Positions 4,461-61,287 of a stretch of 64,000 bases of DNA are shown here, piece by piece. Position numbers and translations under genes: made by a program. Every line of letters begins with the position of its first letter. The stretch's first letter is position 1. Source of the stretch: a virus; the IMG/VR virus record IMGVR_UViG_3300020039_000031; one strand, written 5' to 3'. A model generated the notes under the pieces. It was given only the letters and a program-made list of their open reading frames with translations, was not told where the DNA came from and made no database searches.

Positions 4461-4683
4461 TCTGGTCTGCCTCCTCCGCGTCTACCCATCTGCACGCGGC
4501 GGCAAAATCCATCAACGTATCATTGACCTGAAGAACCGGGACATATGTAATACCCATGTCTTGCATGGTCTTTATATCGTTGTTCTCTTTGAACGCCAAT
4601 CCTCTGGCGTTCATCTTTTTCTTCAACACGACGCACTGAGGGCAATCTGTGCTGTAAAGCGTAATATCATACATAGCATTCAA
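4450..4683 (-). CDS. nrdH: NrdH/glutaredoxin-like redoxin
   Basis: 77 aa with CPQC active-site motif; thioredoxin-fold spacing. Confidence 0.7.
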   Translation of the reverse strand: MNAMYDITLYSTDCPQCVVLKKKMNARGLAFKENNDIKTMQDMGITYVPVLQVNDTLMDFAAACRWVDAEEADQNEH

Positions 4684-9163: not shown

Positions 9164-9934
9164 TTATTGTGGTCTTTGCGCTTCCGCAGGTAACTCATCT
9201 TCCTGCGTACTCCCTTGCGGGATAGTCGTTGCACTTTCAGATAGTTTTTTCCATACAAAGCCGCCTGCTGAACCACATCTGCCATTCAAGCAGTGTGAAA
9301 TCATTCCGCGCGATACACCTGTTTGCCTCGCGGCTTCGCATGTAGACTGAAATGTGGAAATATAGGAACCGTCCAAAGAATACTGGGCAATACGATTACC
9401 TCTAGGTTGTCTTAACTGGTGCTTTAGCGCATGTACATTATTGTCTGCGTATGAAGCCCACTCCAGATTTGAAACATGATTATTATACTTGTCTCCGTCT
9501 ATGTGGTTCACAGTCGGAAGATTATCGCTGTTTGGTATAAATACTTCAGCAACCAACCTATGAACCGGGCACACGTTCGAAGTATGCTCACGTCTTAGGT
9601 TTACTACATAATAACCGTCTCCGGACCGGTCTTTACCGATCGATTCTGTAACCTTCATTTCACCGCCGTGAAGTGTTCGTATTACCCCGCGTGAGTCTAA
9701 GATTGTGCGAGTGAGGCTCCTCACCCTACCATCGTCGCTCACCTCGTAGTATCCTTCATAGCCACTAATTGATTTCCACATCTTCACTCCTATCTGCTTA
9801 GCACAGGATTGCCCTCAATACAGTAGGGTTCCCCCGTTAGCATATCTTTTAGCCGCCATTTCCTGCGGTTACTCAGCTTCGTAAGATACACACCCCTGAG
9901 TAATAGGGTTCACAAAGAATGGGCTAATCATTAA
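9131..9934 (-). other. ~0.8 kb intervening sequence splitting dnaE (candidate group I intron carrying an HNH homing-endonuclease ORF); boundaries approximate
   Basis: the dnaE frame breaks exactly inside the conserved (A)GYGF|NKSHSAAY motif: exon 1 ends ...SANYQF(G) and exon 2 resumes (G)MRDNHSIAY. Confidence 0.4.
9164..9787 (-). CDS. HNH homing endonuclease (NUMOD4 + HNH_3 + C-terminal HTH)
   Basis: WKSISGYEGYYEVSDDGRVRS (NUMOD4), VNHIDGDKYNNHVSNLEW (HNH), C-terminal ARQTGVSRGMISHCLNG. Confidence 0.8.
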   Translation of the reverse strand: MKMWKSISGYEGYYEVSDDGRVRSLTRTILDSRGVIRTLHGGEMKVTESIGKDRSGDGYYVVNLRREHTSNVCPVHRLVAEVFIPNSDNLPTVNHIDGDKYNNHVSNLEWASYADNNVHALKHQLRQPRGNRIAQYSLDGSYISTFQSTCEAARQTGVSRGMISHCLNGRCGSAGGFVWKKLSESATTIPQGSTQEDELPAEAQRPQ

Positions 9935-13033: not shown

Positions 13034-14605
13034 GTGATCACATTGACCAGAAAGCAGCAAATCATCATGAGCCACCTGGCCGGGGTGAGCAACCGGCAGA
13101 TTGCATCGAAGATGCACATCAGCAAGGACACCGTGAACAAGTATGTGAAGGAGTACGATGCACAGCGGGCAGAATTGCTGACTCGGGATCCGGATGCAGA
13201 TCCAGAAGAGATTCTCCAGACCTTCGTAGAAGAACCGAAATACGACGCCAGTAACCGCACCCCGGTCATCGTAACGCCGGAGATGGAAGCCGCCGTGGAG
13301 CAGTGCCTACAGCTCAACGCTGTGAAGCGAGTGTCCGGGATGCGGAAACAGGCGATGAGGAAGAAGGACATCCACGAATACCTGGTTCGGGAAGGCTTTT
13401 CTGTAAGCTATTCCACGGTAAAACGGCTGGTGAACAGACTGGAAGCCCGTCATGAAGAGGCGTATATCCGGCAGGAATATCAGCCCGGTGAAACCTGTGA
13501 GTTCGACTGGGGCGAGGTCAAGCTGGATATAGCGAACAGCGGCTTCAAGAGATACCAGATGGCCGTATTCACAGCAGCATATAGCGGGGAGCGATTTGCC
13601 GTTCTCTACTGTTCACAGGATACGGCAGCATTCCAGGAATCCCATACGACCTTCTTTTCCTTCTGTCATGGAGCATTTCACACCATGGTCTATGACAACA
13701 TGAAGGTCGCCGTGCGGAAATTTGTTGGCCCGACAGAAAAGGAACCCACGAACGCGCTGCTGGAGTTGTCTCTGTATTATGGCTTCCAGTTTCGGTTCTG
13801 CAATGTACGCCGCGGGAACGAGAAGGGGCATGTGGAGCGCAGTGTGGATGTGGTTCGCCACAAAGCTTTCAGTGCACCCGGCTGTGACATTTTTGAATCT
13901 CTGGAGTCTGCCAACCGGTATCTGTTTGGCGTATGTGTCAGGCTGAACCGGGAAACGGCATCCAACGGCCAGGTTCCGGCAGAACTCTTTGAAGAAGAAC
14001 AGCGCTGTCTACTGCCGGCCATGCCGAGGTTCGAGTGCTGTATCCGGACGGAAAACAGCGTGGACAAGTACTCTACAGTCATGGTTGCCGGTAATCATTA
14101 CTCTGTGCCGGACACGCTTGTGGGAAAGCGTGTGCAGGTACGTCTTTACACGAGCAAGCTCGTTGTTTACTACGAAAACCGGATCGTGGCGACTCACAGC
14201 CGGAGTTTCCGCCCTCATGACTGGACGATTGACATCTATCACTATCTCCGAACCCTGAAACGCAAGCCCGGCGCTCTGCCCGGCAGCACGGCACTGCTGC
14301 AGTCCGACTCTGTTGTAAAGCAGATTTACGACACTTATTACACACAGGATGCTCGTACCTTCCTCGAAGTTCTGGAGGTCATATACGAGCTAGGCGCGGA
14401 TACTGTACAGCAGGCGCTTAAACGTATGGAGCGTCTGTCGCCGAAGGATATGAGCGCCCAAAAGATCCGCGTCGTATGCGAGAACACACTGCGTAAGGTG
14501 CCTCAGCAGCCGGGTTCTGACCATCTCAGTGAAAAAGCAAAAAGCACGCTCTCTCAATATGATCTGCTCAGACAACTGCAGATGGAAGGGAGTGTCGCTG
14601 TATGA
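13034..14605 (+). CDS. istA: IS21-family transposase IstA
   Basis: 523 aa, N-terminal HTH (QIASKMHISKDTVNKY); DDE region; overlaps istB by 4 nt. Confidence 0.8.
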   Translation: MITLTRKQQIIMSHLAGVSNRQIASKMHISKDTVNKYVKEYDAQRAELLTRDPDADPEEILQTFVEEPKYDASNRTPVIVTPEMEAAVEQCLQLNAVKRVSGMRKQAMRKKDIHEYLVREGFSVSYSTVKRLVNRLEARHEEAYIRQEYQPGETCEFDWGEVKLDIANSGFKRYQMAVFTAAYSGERFAVLYCSQDTAAFQESHTTFFSFCHGAFHTMVYDNMKVAVRKFVGPTEKEPTNALLELSLYYGFQFRFCNVRRGNEKGHVERSVDVVRHKAFSAPGCDIFESLESANRYLFGVCVRLNRETASNGQVPAELFEEEQRCLLPAMPRFECCIRTENSVDKYSTVMVAGNHYSVPDTLVGKRVQVRLYTSKLVVYYENRIVATHSRSFRPHDWTIDIYHYLRTLKRKPGALPGSTALLQSDSVVKQIYDTYYTQDARTFLEVLEVIYELGADTVQQALKRMERLSPKDMSAQKIRVVCENTLRKVPQQPGSDHLSEKAKSTLSQYDLLRQLQMEGSVAV

Positions 14606-21196: not shown

Positions 21197-22183
21197 TTAA
21201 AGGATCACCCATGCTACTTTCCAGCGTTCATAATCCCGCATGTAGTCTCGTTCGATCTGACGTTGTTTTGCCTCAATCGTGTTTCTTCCGCTGTCCAGTT
21301 TATACGACTCGCCTTTTCGCCGCTCGACGCTGTGTTCCATAAATCTCGCGGCGTCTTCCGAGAAGTCTACCGGTAATCCTCGAACTTCCCGTTCATACAT
21401 ACGGTAGAAAATCCCGGATATTTGTACGCGATGATGGCTGAGCTTCATTTTTGTCCGCCCACTGTCTATCGCGTCCTTGGTGCGATGCGAAAGCTCGCCT
21501 CTTATACCTTTGCTTGTCGGTTTTGATGTAAAACCGCGAATCAACGTATCGCCTTGAGCTCTGATGCGCGTGATAATCTTCTTATCTGCCGTGTAATTAC
21601 TGTTCTTATAAACGAATGTCGGCAGTGTTGCCGCATTTCTAAAAGCAAGGAGTCCCTCTTCGTAGATGCGATATGTCTCGCCGCCAAATGTGACGGTTAA
21701 GTGATCCAGATCAACATCGGAGCATTTCACGCTCAGTATATCCTGTTCTCTGAGTCCGGCATACGCAAGCCAGTAGAAGCAGCGATGGATATTGCTTACC
21801 ATCTGCTCTGTTTCCGGCTCAAAAATTTCGTTCAGACATTGTTGCAGATGTACCGGGTTCTTTACGGTCATATTCCTGATATTGCCGAGGCCGAGCGTAT
21901 CAATAGACAAGATACCCCTCTGAACTGTGTTGTCCCCTTGACCGATCAGCCACTTGATATAGTTCCTGATAATGATCATGTAATTCATCCGAACTCGCTC
22001 GCGAAGTCCTGCGATCTGCTCGAATATGGGACGCAATTCTTCCGGTGACCTTGTTGAAAAATCGGCTCCCCATTCTTCCTCATATGGAGCCAGCGCCTCA
22101 AAAACCTGTTCGCATGTGCGCGCACGTTTTGAGTTCTCTATCTGTTCCGAGATATAGCGGCGCTTTTGTTCTTCATTGTACAT
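21197..22183 (-). CDS. MYNEE-paralog 1, divergent tyrosine-recombinase-like protein
   Basis: AGLREQDILSVKCSDVDLDHL resembles integrase box I; the C-terminal LSHHRV...IFYRMY is only loosely box II-like; paralog of 60346..61287. Confidence 0.3.
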   Translation of the reverse strand: MYNEEQKRRYISEQIENSKRARTCEQVFEALAPYEEEWGADFSTRSPEELRPIFEQIAGLRERVRMNYMIIIRNYIKWLIGQGDNTVQRGILSIDTLGLGNIRNMTVKNPVHLQQCLNEIFEPETEQMVSNIHRCFYWLAYAGLREQDILSVKCSDVDLDHLTVTFGGETYRIYEEGLLAFRNAATLPTFVYKNSNYTADKKIITRIRAQGDTLIRGFTSKPTSKGIRGELSHRTKDAIDSGRTKMKLSHHRVQISGIFYRMYEREVRGLPVDFSEDAARFMEHSVERRKGESYKLDSGRNTIEAKQRQIERDYMRDYERWKVAWVIL

Positions 22184-24788: not shown

Positions 24789-25390
24789 CTGCCTTTCATC
24801 ATTTCCAGTTGGTTCATCATTTCATCAAGAGCCTGCTCGCGTTCTCTGCCCGCAAGCTCCTGTATGCGATCGATATCTTTTTGTACGACTTGCGCAAAGC
24901 TCTCCATCTCAGCGTTTTGTCTATCTATTTCTCTGCGCAGTTTAAGTTCCCTCTCGACCTTTCGTCTGAAGCGATTGTATTTCAAGGCCTGAAAATAGTT
25001 TTTGAAGTATATACGCTGTTTACCTTTGTAGATCGGTTGTGACGTAGGAGAATACGTCAGTGTTATGTATTTTTCTCCATTGGGGATGGTTTTCTCACAA
25101 AAAACCCTTCTCGTTTCGTACTCTTCGTCACAGTAGGCAACCGCGTACCAGTCGTTGTCAATCTCGTATCGGTTAGGATTGATAGCGAAAAAAGAGGCGA
25201 ACTGATCAAATGTCAATTTAACAGAAGAATCGTACTCTCCGTCCGTTTTTGATTTTCTGTAACTCATTGGACTGTTTGAACAAAACAGATCTAGCAAGAA
25301 AATAGGCAACCCAAGCACCATCGTGAATGCCCAAAATAATACAAAAAGCCTCAACTTACATACCCTCGGTCGTGATGAATTCCCGCCCAT
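24785..25390 (-). CDS. membrane-anchored coiled-coil protein
   Basis: N-terminal TM helix, C-terminal heptad-rich region. Confidence 0.35.
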   Translation of the reverse strand: MGGNSSRPRVCKLRLFVLFWAFTMVLGLPIFLLDLFCSNSPMSYRKSKTDGEYDSSVKLTFDQFASFFAINPNRYEIDNDWYAVAYCDEEYETRRVFCEKTIPNGEKYITLTYSPTSQPIYKGKQRIYFKNYFQALKYNRFRRKVERELKLRREIDRQNAEMESFAQVVQKDIDRIQELAGREREQALDEMMNQLEMMKGR

Positions 25391-27584
25391 CGTCCGATGC
25401 GTAAAACATCTTGCGGAGCGTGCAGATATCCTTCGGGATCGTGTCTACATCATCACGGTCATGGAGTGTGCGTACCCAACCGTAAAAACGATTGGCAAGC
25501 GCTGTCGTCAGAGCTGATGTACGTTTACCGTCAATATGACCTTTGCGGATAGCCTCGTGCGCAACGCCGCGCATAAATTTCCAGAAGTTGTAGTAAGCCA
25601 GCTTGAGCTTAATCATATACCCTGTTGAATCTTCGATTACAAAGCCTTCGATATGGCGTCCTTGGTACATGTATTCCGGGTCTGTTACTTCGTAATACCA
25701 GTCAAAGAATTCGGGCCACTCATGAAGCACGAACGCTTTTTCCTTGCAGCGCAGGCTAAAAGCGGCGGCGACCTCTTTCAGTTGCTCATACGGCATCTTC
25801 GTGCATTTCAGGTCGTTTTTGATAATGTCCAGCAGGTAGAGACAGTTACCTGAATACTCAATGATGTGTGGATCATGAACCATGTCCACACACTCGAAGA
25901 CCATCGTGACATCATTCTCTTTCAGATATTGCTTGATGCGCTCGCGAACACCGGGAGCGACCGTCTCAAAAATCCCGCGCAGCCAAACAGCGTAGTCTCC
26001 GTCCGGAGAGGATTTGGTTGTGATAAATAGATTATCCTTGTCATGGTCATAGCTGATCAGGCTGAGGAACCCGTTTTCTTTCACATACGCAGTTACCGGG
26101 AAGACCAGCTTGGATTCCAGCATATCGAATTTCGTCTCGGGGCGCTCATTGATATTGAAGAACTTATCGTAAGCTCTTGCCACGATCTTTGCCTTTGGGA
26201 CATTAATGTAAAGCCCGCGTGCCTTCATCGTCTGCTCGTCCCACACCTTATCGTAGAATGCGCTCTTGGTGAAATTAAAGGATGAGATGTCTCCGTAACG
26301 TTTCTCTTGAATGTACTTGTTCTCCCGCATTTCGAGGATCACATCAGCAACATTCGTTGTCTTTTTGGGCTCATATACAACGACCTCTTCCGGCTCACGA
26401 AAAACCGTGTTCTTGATTTCCACCGTCTTGAAACCATCCGCTGACAACTGGACTACACGGAGCTCACCGCCAAACTCGACCCGTCCTTCCAGATTGAACA
26501 CTCTCTCATTCACCTGAACCGGCAGATGCTTTGTGTTCCGATGCCCGTGAATTTGATATGTATTCTCTGGTGTATTCGCAACAAAAGCGTTGGCGACCTT
26601 CTCGAAATCGTTATAGTTCCCCACGCCCTTGATCATCTGCTGAGTAGCTACGAGCGTCATGTTCTCTGGAATACAGCTCAGGCCGGCATGAGTTACGAGA
26701 ACCGTCTTATCACCGTATGAGTACCAAGCGCACTGTCCCATACGCCGGTAAAGTTGTCTCATTGCCTTTCGGTCAATCTTCGCGTCCTGAAGTTCTGCCT
26801 TCGTGTGCAGTTCAAAATCCTTGGATTTCGCCACTCCATCACATCCATACGTCCAGAGCCAACGCTCATGATTGCCCTCAAGGAGAAGTACGTTATCACG
26901 CCCGACAATATCCATGAGGAAGTTGATCACCTGTACATTCTCGATCCCTCGGTCAATGTAGTCTCCGCAGAAGATGTAGAACTCATCATCTTTTAGCGTC
27001 CCCTCATTATTGAAGTACTGTTGAAGTACTGTCCAGCATCCGTGAATGTCACCGATATGATGAATCTTCTTATAGTTGGAAAGATCGATCTTCCGCATCC
27101 ATATCTTATCCAGCTCATCCGGCTGGATGACCGTGATACCGGACGGGATCTTCTGCGTGGCAAACCTCGCGTACATACGGTCGATCGCCTCGTCAGGAAC
27201 CTGTTTGATCTCGGGACGCATCTTGTTCTGTGCCTTGCACCATTCGATAGGCAATCCGGTGAAGTCAACGCAGTAGATACGGTACCGGTATGTATCGCAC
27301 ATGTCTTTATAACGCTTCATCTCGATCGTTTTGGAGTTCGTGGCGTCGATCACCGTGAACGCGCCGTTCTGCATACGAGTTTCCAGCAGGCGAAACAGCG
27401 TATTCCAAACCACCTGATCGCTCGTGACATTGATCGCCCGCCCTCCGTCAACCGTCATGACCGGTCCGGCGCACATCAGACGAATATCATCAGCGGACAG
27501 CGCGTATGGCGTCAGCCCGTGTTCTTTGATCCATGTCGTCTTGCCGCAGCCAGGAGCTCCGCGCAGCAAAAGCAATACTCTCAT
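25356..27584 (-). CDS. polynucleotide kinase-phosphatase with ligase-like C-terminal domain (Pnkp-like RNA repair enzyme)
   Basis: P-loop GAPGCGKTT; calcineurin motifs GDIHGC/GDYIDRG/GNHE; ligase motif I KENG, EGFVIED, KLKL. Confidence 0.65.
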   Translation of the reverse strand: MRVLLLLRGAPGCGKTTWIKEHGLTPYALSADDIRLMCAGPVMTVDGGRAINVTSDQVVWNTLFRLLETRMQNGAFTVIDATNSKTIEMKRYKDMCDTYRYRIYCVDFTGLPIEWCKAQNKMRPEIKQVPDEAIDRMYARFATQKIPSGITVIQPDELDKIWMRKIDLSNYKKIHHIGDIHGCWTVLQQYFNNEGTLKDDEFYIFCGDYIDRGIENVQVINFLMDIVGRDNVLLLEGNHERWLWTYGCDGVAKSKDFELHTKAELQDAKIDRKAMRQLYRRMGQCAWYSYGDKTVLVTHAGLSCIPENMTLVATQQMIKGVGNYNDFEKVANAFVANTPENTYQIHGHRNTKHLPVQVNERVFNLEGRVEFGGELRVVQLSADGFKTVEIKNTVFREPEEVVVYEPKKTTNVADVILEMRENKYIQEKRYGDISSFNFTKSAFYDKVWDEQTMKARGLYINVPKAKIVARAYDKFFNINERPETKFDMLESKLVFPVTAYVKENGFLSLISYDHDKDNLFITTKSSPDGDYAVWLRGIFETVAPGVRERIKQYLKENDVTMVFECVDMVHDPHIIEYSGNCLYLLDIIKNDLKCTKMPYEQLKEVAAAFSLRCKEKAFVLHEWPEFFDWYYEVTDPEYMYQGRHIEGFVIEDSTGYMIKLKLAYYNFWKFMRGVAHEAIRKGHIDGKRTSALTTALANRFYGWVRTLHDRDDVDTIPKDICTLRKMFYASDDGREFITTEGM

Positions 27585-41115: not shown

Positions 41116-41631
41116 TTACAAATAGGCGTACTGTCCACGCCCAATTTGATCAACAAGCTCAAAACCGCTATTGTTTTTATTGCGATAATGAGAAAACGTA
41201 TGATAACGATCGTCCTCATCAAAAGACGGCGGTTCAAATACGCGAATCATGCGATCCATTTCCTGCTCTGGGATGACACGACGACGCGACCTGTTGTTCT
41301 CTCGGCACAGCTCTTTGTCTGTCTCAATGTAAATAAGATGTGTTTCAAAACCCGGAAACCAGTCAAGGAGCTGGATTCTACCAACATACGTTGGATTATT
41401 CGTATCGAAGATCGTATCGATTCCCTGTTGCTCTGCCATATGGAGCGCACGGAACAATGCCATCCAGATCTCAAACTCATTGATGTGTTTACGATCATCG
41501 CCGTTGAATAGGCGATAGAAATCATCAGGGCAGAGATAATGCAAATGATCTTCCTCAGCGTAGCTCTTAGCGAAGGTGGTCTTGCCGCTTCCGCTAAGAC
41601 CGCACATCATGTAGAGCTTCGGCTTACTCAT
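41116..41631 (-). CDS. P-loop kinase, ribosylnicotinamide-kinase (NadR C-domain)-like
   Basis: MMCGLSGSGKTT Walker A; sits directly downstream of PnuC and the NMNAT. Confidence 0.45.
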   Translation of the reverse strand: MSKPKLYMMCGLSGSGKTTFAKSYAEEDHLHYLCPDDFYRLFNGDDRKHINEFEIWMALFRALHMAEQQGIDTIFDTNNPTYVGRIQLLDWFPGFETHLIYIETDKELCRENNRSRRRVIPEQEMDRMIRVFEPPSFDEDDRYHTFSHYRNKNNSGFELVDQIGRGQYAYL

Positions 41632-42379
41632 TGGTCGCGTTCCTCGATTTGTTGAGCTTATACCAGTTGATAAGACCGATTACAGCCATAATCAGGTAGA
41701 TGGATTTCTTGGTCAGATACACGGTATCGAAGTGTACGATGTACATAGCCACCGCGACGATATCCGTAACGATCCAGAGAACATACTGCTCACGATACCG
41801 GAACAGCTCAAGGAACGTGGCAATGATGCCGATCGCGACCGTTGCCGCGTCAAGCCACGCAACCGTACCGCCGACGCGAACAAGGATCGCGTGATAGATC
41901 ACCGTAGAGATACCGACGACGCCGACCACAATGGCGTCCTGCCACCATGTCATTTTCCTCGCCTTTGTCAGCTCCTGCTGCGTCTCATCACGATGCCTCG
42001 ACCATGCGATCCACGAAATGATATTTAGAGGGAGATAAAGGAGGAGTTCGAGACACATCGTGCCGTAGATCTTCCAGTACGCCAGATACACTATGTACAC
42101 GACCGTATTGACGAGGCCGAACCCGAAGTTTGAGATACTCGCTCTGGCACAGAAGAAAATGCAGACGACGCCACAGACCGCGCTGACAAAGTTGACGATC
42201 GTGAGCCACGCAGGATTCTCGCTTGACGCAGGATCAACGAACGCCGTTACCATCGCGTATGCGGCGATCACGACCATGATGCCGGCCATGACCCATTCGT
42301 ACCATTTCAGGCTCTTGAAAGAACGGATCAGATTGCGCTCACTCTTTTTGATGCTCATATTGCCTCCTAAATAATCCAT
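41624..42379 (-). CDS. pnuC: PnuC-family nicotinamide riboside transporter
   Basis: 7-TM profile with Trp-rich helices typical of PnuC. Confidence 0.55.
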   Translation of the reverse strand: MDYLGGNMSIKKSERNLIRSFKSLKWYEWVMAGIMVVIAAYAMVTAFVDPASSENPAWLTIVNFVSAVCGVVCIFFCARASISNFGFGLVNTVVYIVYLAYWKIYGTMCLELLLYLPLNIISWIAWSRHRDETQQELTKARKMTWWQDAIVVGVVGISTVIYHAILVRVGGTVAWLDAATVAIGIIATFLELFRYREQYVLWIVTDIVAVAMYIVHFDTVYLTKKSIYLIMAVIGLINWYKLNKSRNATNE

Positions 42380-42882
42380 TGTTTTGCTTCTTCGATTCCC
42401 ATTTCGCGAACCGCTGTCGCGCTGATGGGAACTTCTTTTCTCTCTGGATCAACTAGTTCGTAGGTCGCCCACGGATAGGCTCTTTTGAAATACGGCGCGT
42501 ATTCCGGCTCGCTGCCAAATACAGCGTCGAACCGACCGCACGCCTCAAGAACGATCGGCGTTTCCATATCCCAGCTTTCCTCACCGTTCTCATCCCGACA
42601 TGACGAAACGTCAATGACAACCGGGATCACGTTATCAAACATGGCGGCAACCTTTTCGATCTGTTGCTTACGCGGCTCAGGATCGGTAAGAACTCTATGG
42701 TAAATCCCCATAAAACTCTTACGCCTGATCTCTTCTTCCTGTTTCCCGCCAAGCACCAGCAAAAGATAAACCACGTCGCAGAGCGACGCGGCGTATTCGA
42801 GGCAATGTAAATGCCCCTTATGGAACGGCATAAACTTGCCGCCATACATACCTGATTTGTATTTCTTCATAGCACAGCACAC
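42367..42882 (-). CDS. nicotinamide-nucleotide adenylyltransferase (cytidylyltransferase fold)
   Basis: GGKFMPFHKGHL = (H/T)xGH nucleotidyltransferase motif. Confidence 0.65.
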   Translation of the reverse strand: MCCAMKKYKSGMYGGKFMPFHKGHLHCLEYAASLCDVVYLLLVLGGKQEEEIRRKSFMGIYHRVLTDPEPRKQQIEKVAAMFDNVIPVVIDVSSCRDENGEESWDMETPIVLEACGRFDAVFGSEPEYAPYFKRAYPWATYELVDPERKEVPISATAVREMGIEEAKQWII

Positions 42883-43226
42883 ATAAAAGTATTCAGCATA
42901 TCGCAGAAGTCTTCATCCGGCTGGTCGTCGTCCTCTACTCCTGTGAGAGCACTTACGGCATCTTCATATGAAAGCGTGGTTTCAGAAGGGATGTATCTGC
43001 CGCTCCAAAGCACAAAGCAGATTCCCTCCTCATCATCATTATCCATACCGATGTGCATGTATGTCGTGTCCGTCGGGTTGTTCTCCACATACTCAACGGA
43101 TAGCGGGTGATGCTTGAAGCCGTATTCGACCAGCAGATCGACCATCATATTGCGTTCCTCAACGGTCTCGCATCGGATGAAGTAATGATCTTGTATAAAG
43201 CATTTGTCAAATTCTTCTCGTGTCAC
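42867..43226 (-). CDS. hypothetical protein, tandem paralog A
   Basis: shares T(R/H)(E/D)EF...CETVEER...L(L/V)E.G with 43223..43600. Confidence 0.4.
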   Translation of the reverse strand: MTREEFDKCFIQDHYFIRCETVEERNMMVDLLVEYGFKHHPLSVEYVENNPTDTTYMHIGMDNDDEEGICFVLWSGRYIPSETTLSYEDAVSALTGVEDDDQPDEDFCDMLNTFMCAVL

Positions 43227-43600
43227 CTGTACGCCACTCCCATCAGCGAGGCGAGCTCGTCATCGAAACCTTCCAACAACACGCCATCTTCATCGTCTGG
43301 GCTTGAAAGCACCTCGACAGCTTCTTTGTAAGAAATCACAGACGAAAAACTGGACGCATGTGCCCATAAGCAGAATGTTTTGCCATTACTGTCGATTCCG
43401 GGATACATGTACATTTTACTCGCCGGATTTCTGATATAGTTTTCTTTTGACTCCGGATTTCTTGGTATTCCGTTTTCCTCAAGAAGCTCACAGATATGCT
43501 CTCGTTCTTCGACCGTCTCGCATTTTACGCTGATCTTATGTTCTGTATCAATGAACGCTCTTAAGAATTCGTCGTGTGTCATTCTCAGATCGCCTTTCAT
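43223..43600 (-). CDS. hypothetical protein, tandem paralog B
   Basis: see paralog A; overlapping stop/start. Confidence 0.4.
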   Translation of the reverse strand: MKGDLRMTHDEFLRAFIDTEHKISVKCETVEEREHICELLEENGIPRNPESKENYIRNPASKMYMYPGIDSNGKTFCLWAHASSFSSVISYKEAVEVLSSPDDEDGVLLEGFDDELASLMGVAYR

Positions 43601-43705
43601 TCAGAATAATGGGGCTGGGAGACCAGCCCCACGATGTACCCCATCCGTGTGCTGACACACGTGTTAGTCAAGTCAGCACATGCACTGAGCCGCCGTCGGA
43701 GACAT

Positions 43706-43744
43706 TTTAATTTTCAATTTCGCTGAAATTGAAAATTAAAATAA
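43706..43744. repeat. perfect 18-bp-arm palindrome ATTTTAATTTTCAATTTC-gc-TGAAATTGAAAATTAAAAT
   Basis: read directly from the sequence. Confidence 0.9.
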
Positions 43745-43883
43745 GGCACCGACGCAGCTACCATTCCGAAACTTCTGCGGAGCGCAGAAGCAACTGCCGA
43801 AGCGGATATGTATCGACAATTCATCTGCATGGGGTACAAAAGCCGCGCCTGCGGTTTCGCCTCCCGCCTGACGCGGCCTATTA

Positions 43884-44432
43884 TCAAACCGGTGATAGGA
43901 TAAGGTCGGCCGCTTCATCTACGAGAGCGGCGTCCTCTTCATCCGCCTTTACAGCATCCTCCATAAGCATCTGGAGATGACCCTGGCCGGAAGAAATCAC
44001 GAACGCGAAGTCGATTTCCACGACGGGCTCATCGTCATCTTCCGGTTCTTCGTCACATTCTCCGCCGACGAATTCATCGTACCAGTCGTACTCGTCTTCT
44101 TCATCCTCTTCCTCTTCATCCCATTCGCCGTAATGGTCCATCCAGTCAAGGACATCCTGCTTATAGGCGCGGAAATCTCCGTATTCGTCAAGACCTTCAT
44201 AGTCGAGCCAGCCATTGCGGTGGTAATACGAGTAATCGCCCTCCGGAAGATCGTTCAGGCAATCCCGAAGAGTGCTCCAGCCGCAGTCGCGGTCGCAGAT
44301 ATCGTCTTCCACATTGCTTTCATAGTCTTCTTCGTCAATGACATCATCACACACTTCAATGCCGTAGTCCTGGCAGAACTCCATGAGCTCATACCATTCA
44401 GTCACGCCATCGACAAATTCCTGCCTTGTCAT
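43884..44432 (-). CDS. highly acidic protein
   Basis: start moved to MTRQEF, which has a GGGAGG RBS; the longer ORF start would overlap tRNA-Thr. Confidence 0.45.
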   Translation of the reverse strand: MTRQEFVDGVTEWYELMEFCQDYGIEVCDDVIDEEDYESNVEDDICDRDCGWSTLRDCLNDLPEGDYSYYHRNGWLDYEGLDEYGDFRAYKQDVLDWMDHYGEWDEEEEDEEDEYDWYDEFVGGECDEEPEDDDEPVVEIDFAFVISSGQGHLQMLMEDAVKADEEDAALVDEAADLILSPV

Positions 44433-44458
44433 AATAATACCTCCCATAGTATTTTGAA

Positions 44459-44534
44459 TGGAGCTGGTAGGGGGACTCGAACCCCCGACCTGCTGATTAC
44501 AAATCAGCTGCTCTACCAACTGAGCTATACCAGC
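44459..44534 (-). tRNA. tRNA-Thr (anticodon TGT)
   Basis: GCTGGTATAGCTCAGTTGGTAGAGC...GCTGA-tTTGTaa-TCAGC...GGGGGTTCGAGTCCCCC...CCAGCTCCA. Confidence 0.75.
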
Positions 44535-44535
44535 A

Positions 44536-44611
44536 TGGCGGCGGCGGTCGGAATCGAACCGACATCGTTGGAGTCAAAGTCCAATGCACTAACCGATTGT
44601 GCTACGCCGCT
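44536..44611 (-). tRNA. tRNA-Gln (anticodon TTG)
   Basis: anticodon arm TTGGA-cTTTGac-TCCAA, T-arm GTCGGTTCGATTCCGAC, encoded CCA; position 1-72 looks like an A-C mismatch. Confidence 0.6.
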
Positions 44612-45234
44612 GTTCACTATCTGCAATCGATATAGTTGTTCCTGTTTCGTACTGAAGTATCCAAGCGGGAGAGTCTCCTCTGGTTTCCGGCTATGCAGTG
44701 CAGCCGATTCCGGTTTGCTTTGTTTTATGTTAGCCTTGGATCTTAGGATCCGAGAGCTTCGTCCAACTCGGTACTGGGCCCGGCTCGCTTGTTTCATCGC
44801 CTTGGTGTCTTCTTCGTCGCCAGATCTAGGCGGCACTTCTGCGGAGCGCAGAAGCATACATCTCTCGATGTATCATTGCATTGCAGATAGTTGTTATTTC
44901 CTATGATCTACATAGAGATAGCCTTGCAAGTTACCAGGTGCTGCGGCAGCCAACTGCGCACATACAGATGATCTTCCATCTTCAGAAAAAGGTTTCTTGG
45001 TGTCGTCGAGACTCGCATGTCCATTGCAGTGCAGGCGTCTTCAGGGATGCTCGCTATTACTCCTTTTCCTGTCTTCAGGTTAGATGATCCGTCGCTCGTG
45101 GGGCGGCGCAAGGCTACGGCCGCGGCCGTAACCTGCCTGACATCGTCACCGTAACTTTTCGTAACTTCTGCGGAGCGCAGAAGCACCGCCAAAAAAAACA
45201 TGGCGGTTATTTCATCATAGGAATTATCCTTTGA

Positions 45235-46374
45235 TTATCGCTTTAAGTCCTTTCGGATCATCGCAACGATATCCGCGTTGTATTTTTCTCCGATGTGCTT
45301 CACCATATCGTCGATCGCCTCGCGTTCCACATTGCGATAGTAGTTGCGAAGACCCTCCATAACTTGGATATCATGGAGATCCCACTCGATCCCGTGTTGC
45401 TTATCTGACACATACGCCGTGATCATTCCACGGAACTGCCTTCGCGCCTGAAGCCCGATGGTGATCTCGTTGTCTCTTGTAAGCATCAGACCGAGATTCC
45501 AGTTTGAGCCGGACGATGAGCCGTACCGCGTCTTTTTCTCATTCAAAACGTGTGGAGAGTTGAATTGCTTATGTACGTCCTTGATGAGTCGTTCAACAGC
45601 GTGGATATCAAAGTCATACTTCGACGATACGATCGTATCGTCAGAATACCTTGTGTAAACGAACTGCTGCTTCTGAAAATCCCGGAACGCATTGGCGAGC
45701 GTATAGTCGATGGGGATCATCAGGATGTTCGTGAGCGTCGGAGAGAGCGGAGTCCCCTGCGGGAGACCTCCATTCAAGAAACCGAGCTCCACAGCTTTTT
45801 CGAGCTGTTCCTTTCCCTGGTCGATCTTCATGACCTCCGAAAACGGGAAAATCATTGACAGCATCTGCATCGACCATTCCAGCGTCGTGTTGCCGAAGAA
45901 ATTTGATAGATCCAGCTTGCCAAACCACTTGCTTTCGTTGGCCTGATGGCGCTTAACGGCGTCGATCGTACAGCGCTTTTTGACATACGCAAACGCTGAC
46001 GTGTGATACAGCGCCCTGAAATCAGACTCGAACATCCGTTTCAGATCACGAAGTGCCGTCATCAAATCCTCACACGGCGCGTCGATCCTGCGAAGTCCAC
46101 CGGATTTCTTGGGGATATAGAATTCATAATAGAGTTCTTTGCGCGGCTGCTGACGGAGAAACTCCGTCCGTTCATTGAACTTTATGAGCTGTGAGATCAG
46201 ATATGGAACGCTGATCGTGCGCAGAAAATTGTTGCTGACATGCTCAACAGCGTATGTTCGTGTATTTGCCGTGCTGTCGTTTATCATCAGATTTCCGCGC
46301 CGCTTCTCAAATAAGAATTCCTCCAATGTAAGCTGATGATACATCGGAGACTGCATAACCGTTATATACGTCAC
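45235..46374 (-). CDS. reverse transcriptase (non-DGR, class unassigned)
   Basis: IPKKSGGLRRI (motifs 1/2), LDLSNFF (A), GLPQGTPLSPTLTNI (B'), YTRYSDDTIV (YxDD); GTG start with AAGGAGG RBS 7 nt upstream. Confidence 0.85.
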   Translation of the reverse strand: MTYITVMQSPMYHQLTLEEFLFEKRRGNLMINDSTANTRTYAVEHVSNNFLRTISVPYLISQLIKFNERTEFLRQQPRKELYYEFYIPKKSGGLRRIDAPCEDLMTALRDLKRMFESDFRALYHTSAFAYVKKRCTIDAVKRHQANESKWFGKLDLSNFFGNTTLEWSMQMLSMIFPFSEVMKIDQGKEQLEKAVELGFLNGGLPQGTPLSPTLTNILMIPIDYTLANAFRDFQKQQFVYTRYSDDTIVSSKYDFDIHAVERLIKDVHKQFNSPHVLNEKKTRYGSSSGSNWNLGLMLTRDNEITIGLQARRQFRGMITAYVSDKQHGIEWDLHDIQVMEGLRNYYRNVEREAIDDMVKHIGEKYNADIVAMIRKDLKR

Positions 46375-46682
46375 TCGATCACCTCCTTATTCAGTAGTGT
46401 GATTGTAACCTTTGTTGAGTATTGCTGACCGCTTGCCAGGTCGGCGCCAATTGCACGCTCGAGCTGGATGTCTGAGACCAGATCCATTCTGAGGATGAGG
46501 ATCGGTTCCAGAAAGCTGCAGTGCAATTGCTTCCCGTGCGTGTCTGCTGATGAGATCGCGATGACTGCAGTTGTACAACTCGGAGGTGGGTCGTCATCTG
46601 GCGGACTGATTTCGATCGAGTCTGACCATCGTCCCCTTGTCGCCTTACCTTTTCGATACTCCTGCGGAGCGCAAGAGTTCAC
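46371..46682 (-). CDS. possible small ORF in the RT leader (overlaps the RT start as GTGA)
   Basis: 103-aa ORF with weak coding character; the region may instead be non-coding RNA. Confidence 0.2.
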   Translation of the reverse strand: MNSCAPQEYRKGKATRGRWSDSIEISPPDDDPPPSCTTAVIAISSADTHGKQLHCSFLEPILILRMDLVSDIQLERAIGADLASGQQYSTKVTITLLNKEVIE

Positions 46683-46726
46683 TCTAACGAATGAAATACG
46701 TTACAATCTTGTTGGCGGTTTAAGGA

Positions 46727-47488
46727 TCACCGCAAACCGAGGAAACTGAAAAGATCGTCGTCGCTGTATACTTCCTCTGTATCATCGACCTCGAAAGCTC
46801 TTAACGTGTAGACGCCATCCGCTGTGATATCCACGATCAGATCTCCGCTGATCCGGCATTTTGGACGAAGACCAGCGCGATGAGCCGGTTCAGCAGACGA
46901 TCCGTAACCGTCTCTGCCTACCACATGAACCCTCGTTGACGCCTCCTTCGGCGTAGAAGTCCAATATGATACATAGGACGATGCCTCATAGCCCTCACGC
47001 CAGAATCGATTGCGGAAATCTTGTGACGGATGCGGACGAATGCCCTTCCGCTTGAACAGAGCAAAATTGCTTCCATACACATTAAAGATGTCATTGAATT
47101 CCGGCAGTTGAACGCCGCCGGATATTGCCGCGATCTCATAAGGCTCGAAGGCGTAAAGAAATCCGCGACGGTTCGCATAGTCGCCGTGAAGCACGTCGTA
47201 CTCGTGCATATTATGGAACCAGACCGCGTCCTCGCTGTTGAGGAACTGATAGATATTGGACAGTTCGTATGTATTGTTGCCGTACCATTTGTGATCGTTG
47301 ATCGGCGAACCGCGTTCGCGGGCGTCAAAAACCAACGAATCGAGCGCGTATTCCGATATAAAATCGCAATTTGGACTGGCTTTCAACCAAATGATCGGCA
47401 CGCCGGCTGCGTTCGGCGAGGGATCGCATGTGTAGCGTCCGAACTGAAGCCTTGTGCCGACCTTCAGGTCTTTGATTTTCCTATCCAT
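46727..47488 (-). CDS. C-type-lectin-fold (DUF1566/Lcl-like) protein
   Basis: FWREGYEASSYVSYWTSTPKEASTRVHVVGRDGYGSSAEPAHRAGLRPKCRI resembles the YWSST...AW.V.F..G...G.RPV.R signature. Confidence 0.4.
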   Translation of the reverse strand: MDRKIKDLKVGTRLQFGRYTCDPSPNAAGVPIIWLKASPNCDFISEYALDSLVFDARERGSPINDHKWYGNNTYELSNIYQFLNSEDAVWFHNMHEYDVLHGDYANRRGFLYAFEPYEIAAISGGVQLPEFNDIFNVYGSNFALFKRKGIRPHPSQDFRNRFWREGYEASSYVSYWTSTPKEASTRVHVVGRDGYGSSAEPAHRAGLRPKCRISGDLIVDITADGVYTLRAFEVDDTEEVYSDDDLFSFLGLR

Positions 47489-47510: not shown

Positions 47511-48182
47511 TCAGAATGCGTCGCACATCATGCCGAACGCATCGTCGAGCACCAACTTCTTCAGAGGCTTGCCATTGATGAAGTTCATGAAGTTCGCCAC
47601 GCCTCTCGCACAGATGATGCGAACCGTCGGGCACACGCCCAGCGTGACATTGCAGGCGGACACCGGCGTCTCTTCCTTCGCCTCATCGTGAGAGAACTGC
47701 ATGGAGTTGAGCAGATCCTTCTTCATCTTCTCGTCGTTCCAGTCGGCGGCGTAGTGCTGCGCGTCCTCCAGACGAGTGCGGAAGTCGAAGATCGCCTTGA
47801 CGAACGTAGAGTCCATGTGCTTTTCCACGATCTCCCGGCGCAGATCGATATTGTCCACACACAGGAAGATATACCCGGACAGGAGCTTGCCCTTCCAACC
47901 ATCCGGCTGGAGAACCAGATCGTCCACGATGTCCGGGTTGATATCCATGAGGATATCCTTCAGCGCTTCGACCTTCGGCATCCCGATGTGGCGGGCGAAG
48001 AACATCTGATTGACGATGTTGTGCGCCTCCACCGTGTCAAAATCCCAGAGCGTCATCTTTGTGACGCCGCTTCTCGCGAGGTTCTCCGCGACGGTCGAGC
48101 CTACGGAACCACATCCGATGATGTGTACCCTCGCGTCATCCTGATCGGGATTGAAATACTCGTAGCTTTTCGATAAGTCCAT
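47511..48182 (-). CDS. minimal E1-like enzyme (ThiF/MoeB family)
   Basis: VHIIGCGSVGSTVAENLARSGVTKMTLWDFDTVEAHNIVNQMF = Rossmann GxGxxG plus the DxDxVE.SNLNRQ-like ThiF signature. Confidence 0.7.
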   Translation of the reverse strand: MDLSKSYEYFNPDQDDARVHIIGCGSVGSTVAENLARSGVTKMTLWDFDTVEAHNIVNQMFFARHIGMPKVEALKDILMDINPDIVDDLVLQPDGWKGKLLSGYIFLCVDNIDLRREIVEKHMDSTFVKAIFDFRTRLEDAQHYAADWNDEKMKKDLLNSMQFSHDEAKEETPVSACNVTLGVCPTVRIICARGVANFMNFINGKPLKKLVLDDAFGMMCDAF

Positions 48183-49126
48183 TACTTATCCTCCCTGAAG
48201 AATACGTCGGAATAACCGAACGGGCCATACGGATCTTCATCCTCGTCAGAAAACCCGGCGAGCGTTGTCTGACCGCTCGCGTTCGCGCCAGCCCACCCGG
48301 CTCCGTACTTGGTCCGCTTCTTGTCCTTCTTGTTCTTTTTGGAGTTGGCCGGTTTCTCAGGGGGCGTGCTCGGAGCCTTGAGCTGCGTCACGTTGTTGAC
48401 AACGGACGTTGCCGGCGTCGGAGCGGGGACGGACGACGAGGGAGGCGGTCCCTTATATGTCGGCGCAGTGTATACGCGATCCTTGACCATTTCCTTCGCC
48501 TCGCGGATGAACTTGGCAATCCCGTCTTCGCTTTCGACCACATGCACGACCACATCGCCTGTCTCAAACAGCGTGTTCTTCTGGAGATCGAAGATCTTGA
48601 TCGTCTTTTCGCCGCGCTTGTTCCAGATCAGGAAGATGTAGAACATGTCGTCGTCGAGCTGCTCCAGGATCTTCTCCTGATGCGTGACATCGACACCCGA
48701 AGGAGCCGGATTCATATACACATGGCTGTGACCCTGCATACGAATGTTGTTGAACACATCGTCGTCGAACTGGTAGAGCCAGTCCTGATAGCGCTCCTGA
48801 TCCGTGTTGACTGTCGCGCCAGTCACTTCCTGGGGGTAGACGAGAATGTCCTCGATGTAGTAGTCGTCGCCTTCACCCTCTCCGCGATGCGCGACGCCGT
48901 GCCACGCGACCTCCTTGTCGAACTCACGAAGAAGCGCCCACATCTTCTCCCACGCTTTCTCCGAGAAGTACAGATTTGCCTTCCGATCAATCGCGTCGAA
49001 GGTTCTTGTGAAGCTCATCTTTCCATCCGTGCAACGGACGGAGAGGATCGCCTCCGCAAATTCACGCTTGAGCTGTTCCCGGTACTCGTCCGTCATTTTG
49101 ATGATCTTACTCATCTGCCGCCTCAC
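48182..49126 (-). CDS. JAB/MPN (JAMM) metalloprotease-domain protein with Pro/Lys-rich tail
   Basis: GHSHVYMNPAPSGVD = HxHx7Sx2D JAMM motif; overlaps the E1 gene start. Confidence 0.7.
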   Translation of the reverse strand: MRRQMSKIIKMTDEYREQLKREFAEAILSVRCTDGKMSFTRTFDAIDRKANLYFSEKAWEKMWALLREFDKEVAWHGVAHRGEGEGDDYYIEDILVYPQEVTGATVNTDQERYQDWLYQFDDDVFNNIRMQGHSHVYMNPAPSGVDVTHQEKILEQLDDDMFYIFLIWNKRGEKTIKIFDLQKNTLFETGDVVVHVVESEDGIAKFIREAKEMVKDRVYTAPTYKGPPPSSSVPAPTPATSVVNNVTQLKAPSTPPEKPANSKKNKKDKKRTKYGAGWAGANASGQTTLAGFSDEDEDPYGPFGYSDVFFREDK

Positions 49127-50594
49127 TTTCTGTATTTTCCGTTGTGGTACTCGCCTTTTCCTGTTCCTCCAGCCACTTGATCGCCTCGATCGGCGTCACT
49201 ACGCGGCCGTCAGGAAGCTCGAATGCCTTGTTGTTGTAGTTTTCTCTGCCGCATACCGTCTTCAGGAACGTGCCCATCACCGTACCGTCTGTCCAGTTCA
49301 AGCTCTTGGCAGACGCGACACACTGTTCCAGCGCCGCGATGTAGTTGTTTTCCTTGAGCAGGTTGTTTACCTTCGACAGGTAATTCCCCATACAATGCCA
49401 GCGATTGATATGCGGATTCGGCATATAATGCCGAAACTCCTGTCCGAAATCGTGGTTTGTCTGCGGATCGACGTTCCCGTTCAAAGAGAAGCAATACGCA
49501 GCGCAGAACCGGAGACGGATCGACTGATCGATGAATACCGCACGCAGGAGCTTTTCCATCTGATCCAGCGTGAAGCCTCTCGGCTCGTTTTGATAAACGA
49601 AACTGCCGTGATTGTTGAGATACTTGTTGACGACATCCTCGTCGAAGTACTCCATATAGGTCTTCACTGAGAAGTAGATCGTATCGTTAACCACATCCTC
49701 GATAACGAGCTGGCGGTTGCACAGAAAATACTCCATCAGCTCGGAGTCCTCGTCGGAATAGCCGGCGATCTTTGCCTGCAATCCAAGGAGGCGAATATTT
49801 TTCTCGTTGATCATGCGCATTTTTGTTCCGATATCTGTATTCAATATGGCGATGTTTTCATACAGATTGGCGATTTCGCGCTCGACCTTCTGCACTTCAT
49901 TGCGCTCATACCTCGTCTCAAAACCACGGAGCAGCGTCTTGATGCGGATCGTCTCGAAATCGTACTGCGATGCGATCTTATTGATGCACTCGATGTACTT
50001 ATCCGGCGTGGTTTCTTTGAAAGACTGCATCAGCTCCTTATCGAGATCAGACCACCCCTTGTCCGGGCTGAAATACCACGGCAGGATGCCGAGCGTTATG
50101 CTCTGCAGGAAGTGCATTCGCTTCATGTTGAGCGATTCCACGAACAGAATCGTACTCTTCTGCTCGGCGTTGATATAGCAGAGCACGTTGAAGTTCTTTC
50201 GGAACAGATTGGTGATCTCTTCGATCTGCCGCCATCCGTGATATGTGGCGGCGAAGTATGAATGCAGGCAGTGATAGCACGCCAAGTTGTTCGCGGAGAT
50301 CGGGCTGCCAAGATTGTGGATCTGGAGATAGCCATGGCTCGTCACATCCCACGAGCCGCAGATTGCGCGAATGATAGCATCGGCGCTATTGTTTTTGACA
50401 TGATCTTCTGTTATGTTCGAGGTAGAAAACCTCAGCTCGATCGACTCGTTCTCCGGGATACGCTGTCCCATAAACGCACGCAGGGTGGCGAGGAACGAAT
50501 AGTCTCCCTGATACGCCTGACCGCGAATGTTCTGGAAGTATCCGTTTGCCGCATCCGTTGTGAACGGCGTCGATGTGATCGGCGTCTTGAACAC
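49107..50594 (-). CDS. hypothetical 495-aa protein, first gene of the JAB-E1 cassette (possible E2-like)
   Basis: C-terminal region PNPHINRWHCMGNYL faintly resembles a UBC HPN...C segment; overlaps the JAB start. Confidence 0.4.
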   Translation of the reverse strand: MFKTPITSTPFTTDAANGYFQNIRGQAYQGDYSFLATLRAFMGQRIPENESIELRFSTSNITEDHVKNNSADAIIRAICGSWDVTSHGYLQIHNLGSPISANNLACYHCLHSYFAATYHGWRQIEEITNLFRKNFNVLCYINAEQKSTILFVESLNMKRMHFLQSITLGILPWYFSPDKGWSDLDKELMQSFKETTPDKYIECINKIASQYDFETIRIKTLLRGFETRYERNEVQKVEREIANLYENIAILNTDIGTKMRMINEKNIRLLGLQAKIAGYSDEDSELMEYFLCNRQLVIEDVVNDTIYFSVKTYMEYFDEDVVNKYLNNHGSFVYQNEPRGFTLDQMEKLLRAVFIDQSIRLRFCAAYCFSLNGNVDPQTNHDFGQEFRHYMPNPHINRWHCMGNYLSKVNNLLKENNYIAALEQCVASAKSLNWTDGTVMGTFLKTVCGRENYNNKAFELPDGRVVTPIEAIKWLEEQEKASTTTENTESEAADE

Positions 50595-60345: not shown

Positions 60346-61287
60346 TTACAGATTGAATGCCCGTTTATAGGCTTTGTAAAACCAGATGATACTGGCATAA
60401 TTGGCAGAATTTCGGAAGATTTCCAGAACTTTTCCCTGATTTTCAGACTTAAATGCGTCTAACCCTGACACTTGCTCCCATTCCCATAGAGCATGATATC
60501 GTCCGGATTTCCAGACGTTTGAGAACGTGAGACGAGATGGAAAACCCTGCTCTCTATACTTGAGATTGTACCTATTCAGTGCGGAATACACCTGACTTGT
60601 GGTATATTCCCCGCCGAATTTCTCGGAGTTCCTCGGCAGAAACCTTTTGAGATAGGCGTCCGTCGAACGGTCCTTGATAACCTCGTAGACCGTCGTATGG
60701 TTTTCCCTCTGGCCTACGGTCGTTTCCTCAAATTCCTGCAAAATATCCGCAATTCGATCGGAAAAGCCGTCCACGATTATATTCCCGGCTGCATCATAAA
60801 CCCGTCTTACATTTAGATCGACATGAGCTTCCCGCAAATCTATGATTTCTTTTTGCTGCAAACCAAGCCAAGCAAAAGCCATGATTACAGGCTGCGGATA
60901 CCCTTCATTGAACGCACAAACCTTGCGCATGGAGTATATCAGATCGTTTTCATCGCGGAATAAAACCCTTGAAATCGACGGAGAAATATCCAAATCCGGG
61001 TTACAAACCTGCAAAAACCCGTCGTTTGTCTCCATAATTCCGTTGGTTTTACACCATTCGATATATGCTTTGATTACTATGCGAAGATTATAAATCATCT
61101 GTATGCCCGTCATATCCATAGAATCAATAGCAAGCATAGCCTGATTAACCGTCATCACCGCAACATCTGCTCCGACTGCAATTTCCCCAGGCTCTGTCCT
61201 ACTGAAAAGCCCGTGTGTTGTGCGGTAGTCCTTGTGCTGTGGACAGTATTCATTCAAAAACCGCTCTTTGATTTCCTCATTATACAT
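60346..61287 (-). CDS. MYNEE-paralog 2, divergent recombinase-like protein
   Basis: shares the N-terminus MYNEE.K.R(Y/F) and overall layout with 21197..22183; the box-I Arg position reads GLQQKE. Confidence 0.3.
   Translation of the reverse strand: MYNEEIKERFLNEYCPQHKDYRTTHGLFSRTEPGEIAVGADVAVMTVNQAMLAIDSMDMTGIQMIYNLRIVIKAYIEWCKTNGIMETNDGFLQVCNPDLDISPSISRVLFRDENDLIYSMRKVCAFNEGYPQPVIMAFAWLGLQQKEIIDLREAHVDLNVRRVYDAAGNIIVDGFSDRIADILQEFEETTVGQRENHTTVYEVIKDRSTDAYLKRFLPRNSEKFGGEYTTSQVYSALNRYNLKYREQGFPSRLTFSNVWKSGRYHALWEWEQVSGLDAFKSENQGKVLEIFRNSANYASIIWFYKAYKRAFNL

Follow-up and report, generated by a model that had tools for sequence, protein, structure and literature searches.

We analyzed a 64,000-nucleotide stretch of viral DNA (IMG/VR record IMGVR_UViG_3300020039_000031), referred to below in its entirety as the window, around a minus-strand gene for a 379-aa reverse transcriptase (RT). 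The gene is bordered by 352 nt of non-coding DNA upstream (46375-46726) and 623 nt downstream (44612-45234), neither of which holds a conserved open reading frame (ORF), and both flanks correspond to structured retron-type RNAs on the RT strand. As predicted from sequence, this is a large gut phage carrying an RT flanked by four retron-type template RNAs, not one. The RT and the four units are as follows:

45235..46374, minus strand: retron-type RT ORF, 379 aa, with a GTG start and a YSDD catalytic motif (ORF call and profiles)
46401..46708, minus strand: unit U, an msr-msd-like RNA in the 5' leader of the RT (covariance model, fold and relatives)
44895..45226, minus strand: unit A, beginning 8 nt past the RT stop (covariance model, inverted repeat I6 and fold)
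44615..44892, minus strand: unit B, 2 nt past unit A and 3 nt before tRNA-Gln (covariance model, inverted repeat and fold)
43634..43839, minus strand: unit D, a probable divergent unit (hairpin repeat, fold and orthologue)

An initial annotation of the same DNA had described a stand-alone RT of unknown class behind a single structured-looking leader of about 350 nt with weak ORFs only, followed by 620 nt of non-coding DNA. Its view of the leader was borne out, as this stretch contains unit U; that of the downstream region was right about coding potential but missed units A and B within it and unit D 1.4 kb further on. The description as stand-alone, unclassified and equipped with one leader has to be abandoned, since the RT is retron-type and has several template units.

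To begin with the enzyme, the four RT motifs listed in the initial annotation were all found as quoted (IPKKSGGLRRI at residue 87, LDLSNFF at 154, GLPQGTPLSP at 203 and YSDD at 243), as were the 379-aa length, the GTG start and a strong ribosome-binding site (RBS), AAGGAGG, 8 nt 5' of the GTG. The ORF matched Pfam RVT_1 at 5e-17, and its top 25 PADLOC matches were exclusively retron RTs (RT_II-A 4e-41, I-A 8e-33, III-A 3e-32), while the best sequence matches in the PDB were the RTs of retrons Ec83 and Ec78. Since the profile and PDB rankings are those of a retron but the scores remain under the curated cut-offs of every named family, the predicted protein is a divergent retron-type enzyme outside all of these families. 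The initial annotation had offered three classes, namely retron, group II-like (G2L) or the DRT/UG defense-associated RTs, and profile typing singled out the first; a DRT/UG enzyme was rejected, with Drt2 at 41 bits against a cut-off of 390 and Drt3a at 28 against 200. A group II intron RT or maturase, which had already been thought not to fit, was ruled out by a score of 74 bits against a cut-off of 300 for the maturase model TIGR04416, together with the lack of flanking group II intron domains in Rfam, even at E up to 5. A diversity-generating retroelement (DGR) had likewise been doubted, and was rejected after a template/variable repeat test confined to the 64-kb window, in which the free (msd) parts of the units had no similarity elsewhere.

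The units share one order on the RT strand: an arm a1, a G, a variable hairpin H1, a conserved hairpin H2, a short conserved linker, the free (msd) stretch of ~120-250 nt in the window, an ATGTAG-like end and an arm a2. Read on the RT strand, the 19-nt hairpin CTTCTGCGCTCCGCAGAAG is present three times, at 43772, 44836 and 45165, and 46659 has a compensated variant of it; inverted repeats enclose the stretch around each copy. When contigs with an RT 76-85% identical were compared, the ends of each stretch were conserved, whereas its middle could not be aligned; for the first four related loci, which have RTs ~60% identical and were too distant, no nucleotide similarity of the non-coding parts was detected. 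In an Rfam search of the window, only tRNAs passed, and there were no other credible matches at E up to 5.

The individual units were scored with a covariance model, R1, for which 30 msr modules were taken from distant clades and none from the clade of the window. Unit U comprises a1 at 46708-46700 (GATTGTAAC), a candidate branch G at 46699, H2 at 46677-46659 and a2 at 46409-46401, just after which comes the RBS of the RT. It matched R1 with 34 bits (E 3.7e-5 for the whole window), and its fold, with the a1/a2 stem closed, had a z score of -3.1; the comparison with relatives having an RT 76-85% identical showed the ends kept and the middle diverged. The check for a1/a2 repeats in 46375-46726 that the initial annotation had proposed was thus positive. 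Unit A (a1 45226-45214, G 45213, H2 45183-45165, a2 44907-44895) scored 29.5 bits (E 3.5e-4) with a fold z of -3.9 and has orthologues in three related loci, L005, L007 and L009. For unit B (a1 44892-44880, G 44879, H2 44854-44836, a2 44627-44615), the values were 25.2 bits, E 3e-3 and z -4.8, and a 12-nt perfect inverted repeat (I4) is present. Unit D (a1 43839-43829, G 43828, H2 43790-43772, a2 43644-43634) carries the same H2 as units A and B and a 19-bp hairpin within its msd part, folds with a z of -8.3 and has an orthologue in L005-L007; it is probably a divergent template unit, less certain than U, A and B. All four units fold with a closed a1/a2 stem and both hairpins. Unit U is also covered by a 103-aa GTG ORF (46371-46682, minus strand) that overlaps the RT start by GTGA and has no counterpart among the ORF calls of the closest relatives. 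In locus L004, too, an ORF of this kind (4676-4996) lies over the unit, and ORF callers may annotate such RNAs as proteins.

A strict descriptor that combines the H2 shape with TnnC was then run on 88 related viral loci and on the whole window. In the viral loci there were 237 matches on the RT strand compared with 31 on the other strand, and 197 compared with 9 among those with flanking a1-G...a2; over the 64 kb of the window, the descriptor returned the four units and nothing else complete. R1, run over both strands of the window (128 kb), found U, A and B exclusively, up to E = 10. On the related loci, ~150 in total, R1 gave 204 matches in 729 kb of viral sequence and 68 in 530 kb of contigs from metagenome-assembled genomes (MAGs), which had no part in building the model, and all of these were on the RT strand. 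Neither R1 nor the descriptor found such units in loci with other retron RT families. These distributions bear on the idea that the hairpin units are general intergenic elements of the phage, for example terminators or processing sites, with no relation to the RT. H2 is indeed G+C-rich and intergenic and the units abut tRNA genes, as such elements might; however, none of the 64 kb away from the RT has such units, their presence and strand follow those of the RT in ~150 loci, they are missing alongside other retron RT families, and no T-run follows H2. We therefore regard this explanation as exceedingly improbable.

The base pairing was supported by covariation. RNAalifold on a plain MAFFT alignment caught part of H2, the 19- and 20-nt hairpins being out of register, and a hand-set structure with Infernal re-alignment was used. 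In the resulting model alignment, H2 was 99.8% paired with compensatory changes at 7/8 pairs, and H1 was 80% paired with compensatory changes at 5/5 pairs. The covariation score was 0.71 in this alignment, which is fitted to the structure, compared to 0.26 for shuffled alignments and 0.09-0.19 for slid partners; the unfitted MAFFT alignment went in the same direction (0.63 versus 0.25). For the a1/a2 arms, unit positions were set by the msr model alone, and the 8 nt preceding the G recurred as an exact reverse complement 150-420 nt downstream in 110 of 141 unique matches, compared with 0, 0, 1 and 1 of 141 in four control searches. The base after a1 was G in 102/116, which marks the position of a predicted 2'-5' branch, and the base before a2 was G in 135/144, within an ATGTAG consensus absent from every search rule.

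Across the family, the strict descriptor called 0 to 5 complete units per locus. Among 130 loci with an RT at least 35% identical, 99 had at least one complete unit and 74 at least two, with one call on the opposite strand. In the usual layout, the end of one unit precedes the RT start by ~27 nt, and between one and four further units are arranged head-to-tail past the RT stop, in some loci among tRNA genes; consecutive units are back-to-back (within 10 nt) in 37/139. The 9-nt tip of H2 differs between phages (for example, GCGCTCCGC and GCCAAAGGC). Pairs of units from one locus had identical tips in 71% of cases and pairs from different loci in 14%, with a mean match of 8.2/9 and 4.8/9 positions, respectively. 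In contrast, the a1 arms are private to each unit (1% identical within a locus). Such a shared tip with private arms is the pattern expected if one RT recognizes a common hairpin while each unit closes on itself, and suggests a single RT serving several units. Alternatively, unit U alone could work as a template, with the downstream units being duplicated relics or having another RNA role. Canonical retrons do have one ncRNA, upstream of the RT, and the poor model score of unit D fits this idea. Yet the downstream units keep their G and their private, compensating a1/a2 arms, carry the H2 tip of their own phage and, with 106 descriptor calls downstream of the RT against 58 upstream, are the more numerous; moreover, their msr is under purifying selection, with an identity of 0.93-1.00 at a 4-fold-site identity of 0.88. 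A role for unit U alone is therefore quite improbable.

The rate of change in the middle of the units was compared with that of silent sites. For pairs of loci with an RT 98-99.5% identical, identity was 84% at 4-fold sites, 100% in the msr and 78% in the msd; at the distance between the window and L005, both 4-fold sites and msd were saturated. Because msd identity tracks that of 4-fold sites, the msd sequence is unconstrained and drifts at about the neutral rate, and active diversification as the source of its hypervariability was rejected (0.78 in the msd versus 0.84 at 4-fold sites). Near-neutral drift of a template in turn suggests that the presence or the ends of the DNA product probably matter more than its sequence. 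The msd parts are A+C-rich. The initial annotation had also pointed to palindromes in the leader, and those quoted do exist (unit U has nine 6-nt palindromes in the 239 nt of 46410-46648), but they are no trait of the family, given 458 in the msd parts versus 481 +/- 24 after shuffling. By comparison, the RT genes have far fewer 6-nt palindromes than expected (884 versus 1427), and the window as a whole is sparse in them, at 9.4 per kb.

The length and weak structure of the templates raise the possibility that the RNAs are used in some way other than that of a retron, either by DRT2-like repeated copying to make a gene or to provide cDNA for replication or recombination, and the retron signature residues are only partly kept. 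Against this, there was no coding signal, a stop-free frame being present in 28 units versus 17.6 expected on the RNA strand and in 19 versus 17.4 on the other, so that coding units were rejected. In addition, the Drt2 score and the window-wide lack of msd similarity given above speak against such uses, and the a1-G...G-a2 geometry is the priming geometry of retrons. We consider a non-retron use very improbable.

Together, these results make it probable that the locus is a phage-borne retron in which a single RT serves several template RNAs. The class of the RT, the RNA architecture with its covariation, the shared tip with private arms and the co-occurrence of the units with the RT and its strand are direct observations, and the molecular steps are extrapolated from established retron biology (PMC7736814). 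By analogy, the units would be transcribed together with the RT; in each unit a1 would pair with a2 and present the G after a1; the RT would recognize the conserved H2, whose tip is common to the units of one phage, prime on the 2'-OH of that G and copy the RNA from the ATGTAG/a2 junction back towards H2. The outcome would be up to four different branched RNA-DNA molecules (multicopy single-stranded DNA [msDNA]), one per unit.

Several points weigh against this reading. The best NCBIfam model for the RT, retron_St85_RT (NF038233; 1e-45), gave 156 bits and did not reach its curated cut-off of 235. In an alignment with Ec83, the NAXXH motif of retron RTs is AVKRH in the window RT, with the H kept and the N and A replaced, and VTG is NLG, with the G alone matching. 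The H of NAXXH and the G of VTG are the most conserved residues according to Mestre et al. (PMC7736814), and H143 and N293, L294 and G295 are invariant among the relatives of this RT. The distant-clade model R1 gave just 8 bits for unit D (E 1.3 with filters off), which is not significant. The long msd parts (~120-250 nt) are mostly no more stable than shuffled sequences, with a median z of -0.9 and 22% below -2, while a classical msd is a long hairpin, with a stem of 10-50 bp. Finally, priming, branch and msDNA are predictions from the sequence analysis.

Besides the RT and its units, the window encodes a DNA polymerase, a primase, DnaB, NrdD, an RNA ligase/kinase fusion, a nicotinamide mononucleotide (NMN) adenylyltransferase, PnuC and 11 tRNAs. 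No close phage was found in GenBank, the best match being a human-faecal contig with 39% RT identity, and Staphylococcus jumbo phages were at 24-29%. The RT family is restricted to MAG contigs and uncultivated phages of the gut. It is represented by IMG/VR contigs 50-130 kb long, together with MAG contigs that were binned for the most part as Clostridia and derive from the guts of humans, ruminants, rabbits, chickens and termites. The family is widespread in gut metagenomes, with some RT clusters occurring on at least 1000 contigs. The features adjoining the retron in the window are as follows:

44459..44611, minus strand: tRNA-Gln(ttg) and tRNA-Thr(tgt), directly after unit B (ARAGORN and Rfam)
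46727..47488, minus strand: DUF6273 protein, 253 aa, between E1 and unit U; variable and non-core (Pfam DUF6273, 3e-7)
47511..48182, minus strand: ThiF/E1-like adenylyltransferase (E1), 223 aa (Pfam ThiF, 4e-22)
48182..49126, minus strand: JAB/MPN-like protein, 314 aa, with an exact JAMM motif, HSHVYMNPAPSGVD (HxHx7SxxD) (translation; weak PADLOC JAB match, E 0.003)
49107..50594, minus strand: 495-aa protein (p495), restricted to this phage family, its fold not confidently identified

Among the related loci, 317 of 319 tRNAs are on the RT strand. Five units end within 10 nt of a tRNA, and in locus L111 (7070-7072), within an array of 12 tRNAs, 2 nt separate tRNA-Ser from the start of a unit. 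Since units such as B and that of L111 abut tRNA genes, tRNA processing enzymes might trim the retron RNAs to their final length. A gene located between the tRNAs and unit D (43884-44447, minus strand) encodes a 187-aa protein with 35% Asp+Glu and 4% Lys+Arg, and two small acidic proteins (20-24% Asp+Glu) come after it (42867-43600, minus strand); none of the three had a family match, and their composition recalls DNA-mimic anti-restriction proteins. The NMN adenylyltransferase adjoins the PnuC transporter (41624-42882), and the ligase fusion is a 742-aa RNA ligase/phosphatase/polynucleotide kinase (25356-27584); taken with the 11 tRNAs, they resemble the NAD-salvage and tRNA-repair functions that phages direct against host defenses. 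Elsewhere in the window (8174-12181 and 13034-14605), the phrog_405 match to DNA polymerase is split between a 770-aa ORF (profile 43-792) and a 329-aa ORF (794-1045), with a 207-aa ORF between the halves and a transposase-like ORF nearby on the other strand; an intervening mobile element may be the cause. Two ORFs, at 21197-22183 and 60346-61287, weakly matched a PHROG family annotated as integrase (E 7e-10 and 9e-9).

On the upstream side, the neighborhood is far more constant. E1, JAB and the 495-aa protein were upstream of the RT on the same strand in 80/80, 77/80 and 76/80 viral loci, respectively, and the block of all three was present in 48/52 MAG loci, down to 35% RT identity. A homologue of the 495-aa protein is filed under Acutalibacter muris (WP_290461268.1). 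The initial annotation had named a lectin-fold protein and the E1/JAB genes as likely partners; the E1/JAB genes, plus the 495-aa gene, are indeed nearly always upstream, but the gene taken for a lectin fold, that of the DUF6273 protein, was found in only 42/80 viral loci, is lacking in most MAG loci and seems to have been inserted between E1 and unit U. The block may constitute a ubiquitin-like conjugation set, and by synteny within one phage lineage its members are candidate partners of the retron.

Whether the retron acts with this block or without a protein effector is the point on which the two accounts of its role differ. In the account without one, a multi-template retron would produce abundant msDNA as a decoy or sponge for host sensors or nucleases, and E1/JAB would be an unrelated neighbor. 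This agrees with the unconstrained template sequence, with several different products from a single RT and with surroundings resembling counter-defense (the 11 tRNAs, the ligase/kinase fusion, the NMN adenylyltransferase with PnuC and the 35% Asp+Glu protein). Stand-alone msr-msd-RT cassettes are also known, in retron clades 2 and 11 (PMC7736814). Conversely, no pro-viral retron is described in the literature searched, and the block is upstream in ~95% of loci, with E1 usually directly before unit U, over RT identities of 35-100%, while the genes downstream of the RT vary among relatives. This account is in our judgment unlikely. Two findings that favor it also count against a partnership with the block. 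PADLOC identified no known retron effector (types I-XIII; NDT, PtuAB) among the neighbors, only E1 and a weak JAB. In four MAG loci (L092, L102, L103 and L116), the 4 kb upstream of the RT do not contain the block, although R1 msr-module matches are at the expected positions in three of the four (in L102, the sole R1 match is ~900 nt upstream of the RT, with no matching a2 verified). A further point against the partnership is that all relatives belong to one phage lineage, so that the adjacency of E1/JAB could be inherited gene order and not function.

On balance, we favor a conflict function tied to the E1/JAB block over effector-less decoy DNA, and tentatively propose that RT-msDNA complexes might act with the E1/JAB/495-aa block as a phage-borne conflict system and new accessory module. 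In broader terms, and with equal reserve, the locus could be a natural "retron array," in which a single viral RT makes several msDNAs for the benefit of the virus, either as decoys or as a nucleic-acid arm whose protein arm would be the ubiquitin-like set of a small beta-grasp-like ORF, the 495-aa protein, JAB and E1. Either version, if true, would give retrons a function and a type of partner that had not been described before.

To our knowledge, the retrons studied so far have been treated as one RT with one ncRNA and one effector in bacterial defense. The family described here departs from this in three ways, namely several templates per RT, a location in the replication/tRNA region of a large phage, and the lack of a known effector alongside a constant E1/JAB neighbor. 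It allows a direct test of whether retrons can serve viruses, and, with a hairpin tip that is shared and a1/a2 arms that are private, it illustrates a way of encoding RT-template specificity. Phage- or satellite-borne retrons, cassettes without an effector and retron-like RTs in jumbo phages are already known; our search of the literature, which was incomplete, returned no natural case of a retron that has more than one ncRNA, has its ncRNAs after the RT or is linked to E1/JAB.

Among known systems, the closest by profile and PDB matches of the RT are the Type II-A/I-A retrons (Sen2/St85, Eco1/Ec86, Ec78 and Ec83). The plan of the units appears to match that of the Ec86 RNA, which lies in the RT leader and consists of a1, a branch G, two msr hairpins, the template and a2. 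Unlike these retrons, the window RT is under the family cut-off, has ~60 extra N-terminal residues and carries AVKRH for NAXXH and NLG for VTG. Its templates number 2-5 in place of one, lie mostly past the RT gene and are long and weakly structured, and the locus has no NDT or PtuAB effector. In being on a viral or satellite genome, the system resembles retronphage phiR73 (retron Ec73) and the P2/P4-type prophage retrons. Retrons of the phiR73 type belong to temperate elements of Proteobacteria and have one ncRNA and a defined effector, whereas that of the window is in the replication/tRNA region of a ~120-kb phage, in Clostridia-binned contigs, and has several ncRNAs. The stand-alone (msr-msd)-RT cassettes of clades 2 and 11 (Mestre et al. 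2020, PMC7736814) similarly combine a retron RT and ncRNA with no recognized effector; they differ in being bacterial (Gammaproteobacteria and Actinobacteria) and in having a single ncRNA and no reported E1/JAB neighbor. The retron-like RT of Staphylococcus jumbo phages (MarsHill gp206; bioRxiv 10.1101/2020.12.14.422802) shares the large phage, the lack of an effector and a long adjacent non-coding region. It is 24-29% identical and has a 200-residue N-terminal domain, its ncRNA has only been hypothesized, and no repeated units were described. Engineered "retron arrays," if they join one RT to several ncRNAs, would be alike in that respect, but these are man-made. Judging by its title, one such report concerns retron arrays for simultaneous multi-site genome editing (PMC10370050). 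The phage family would represent a natural design for obtaining several templates from one RT, useful for retron-based DNA-writing tools.

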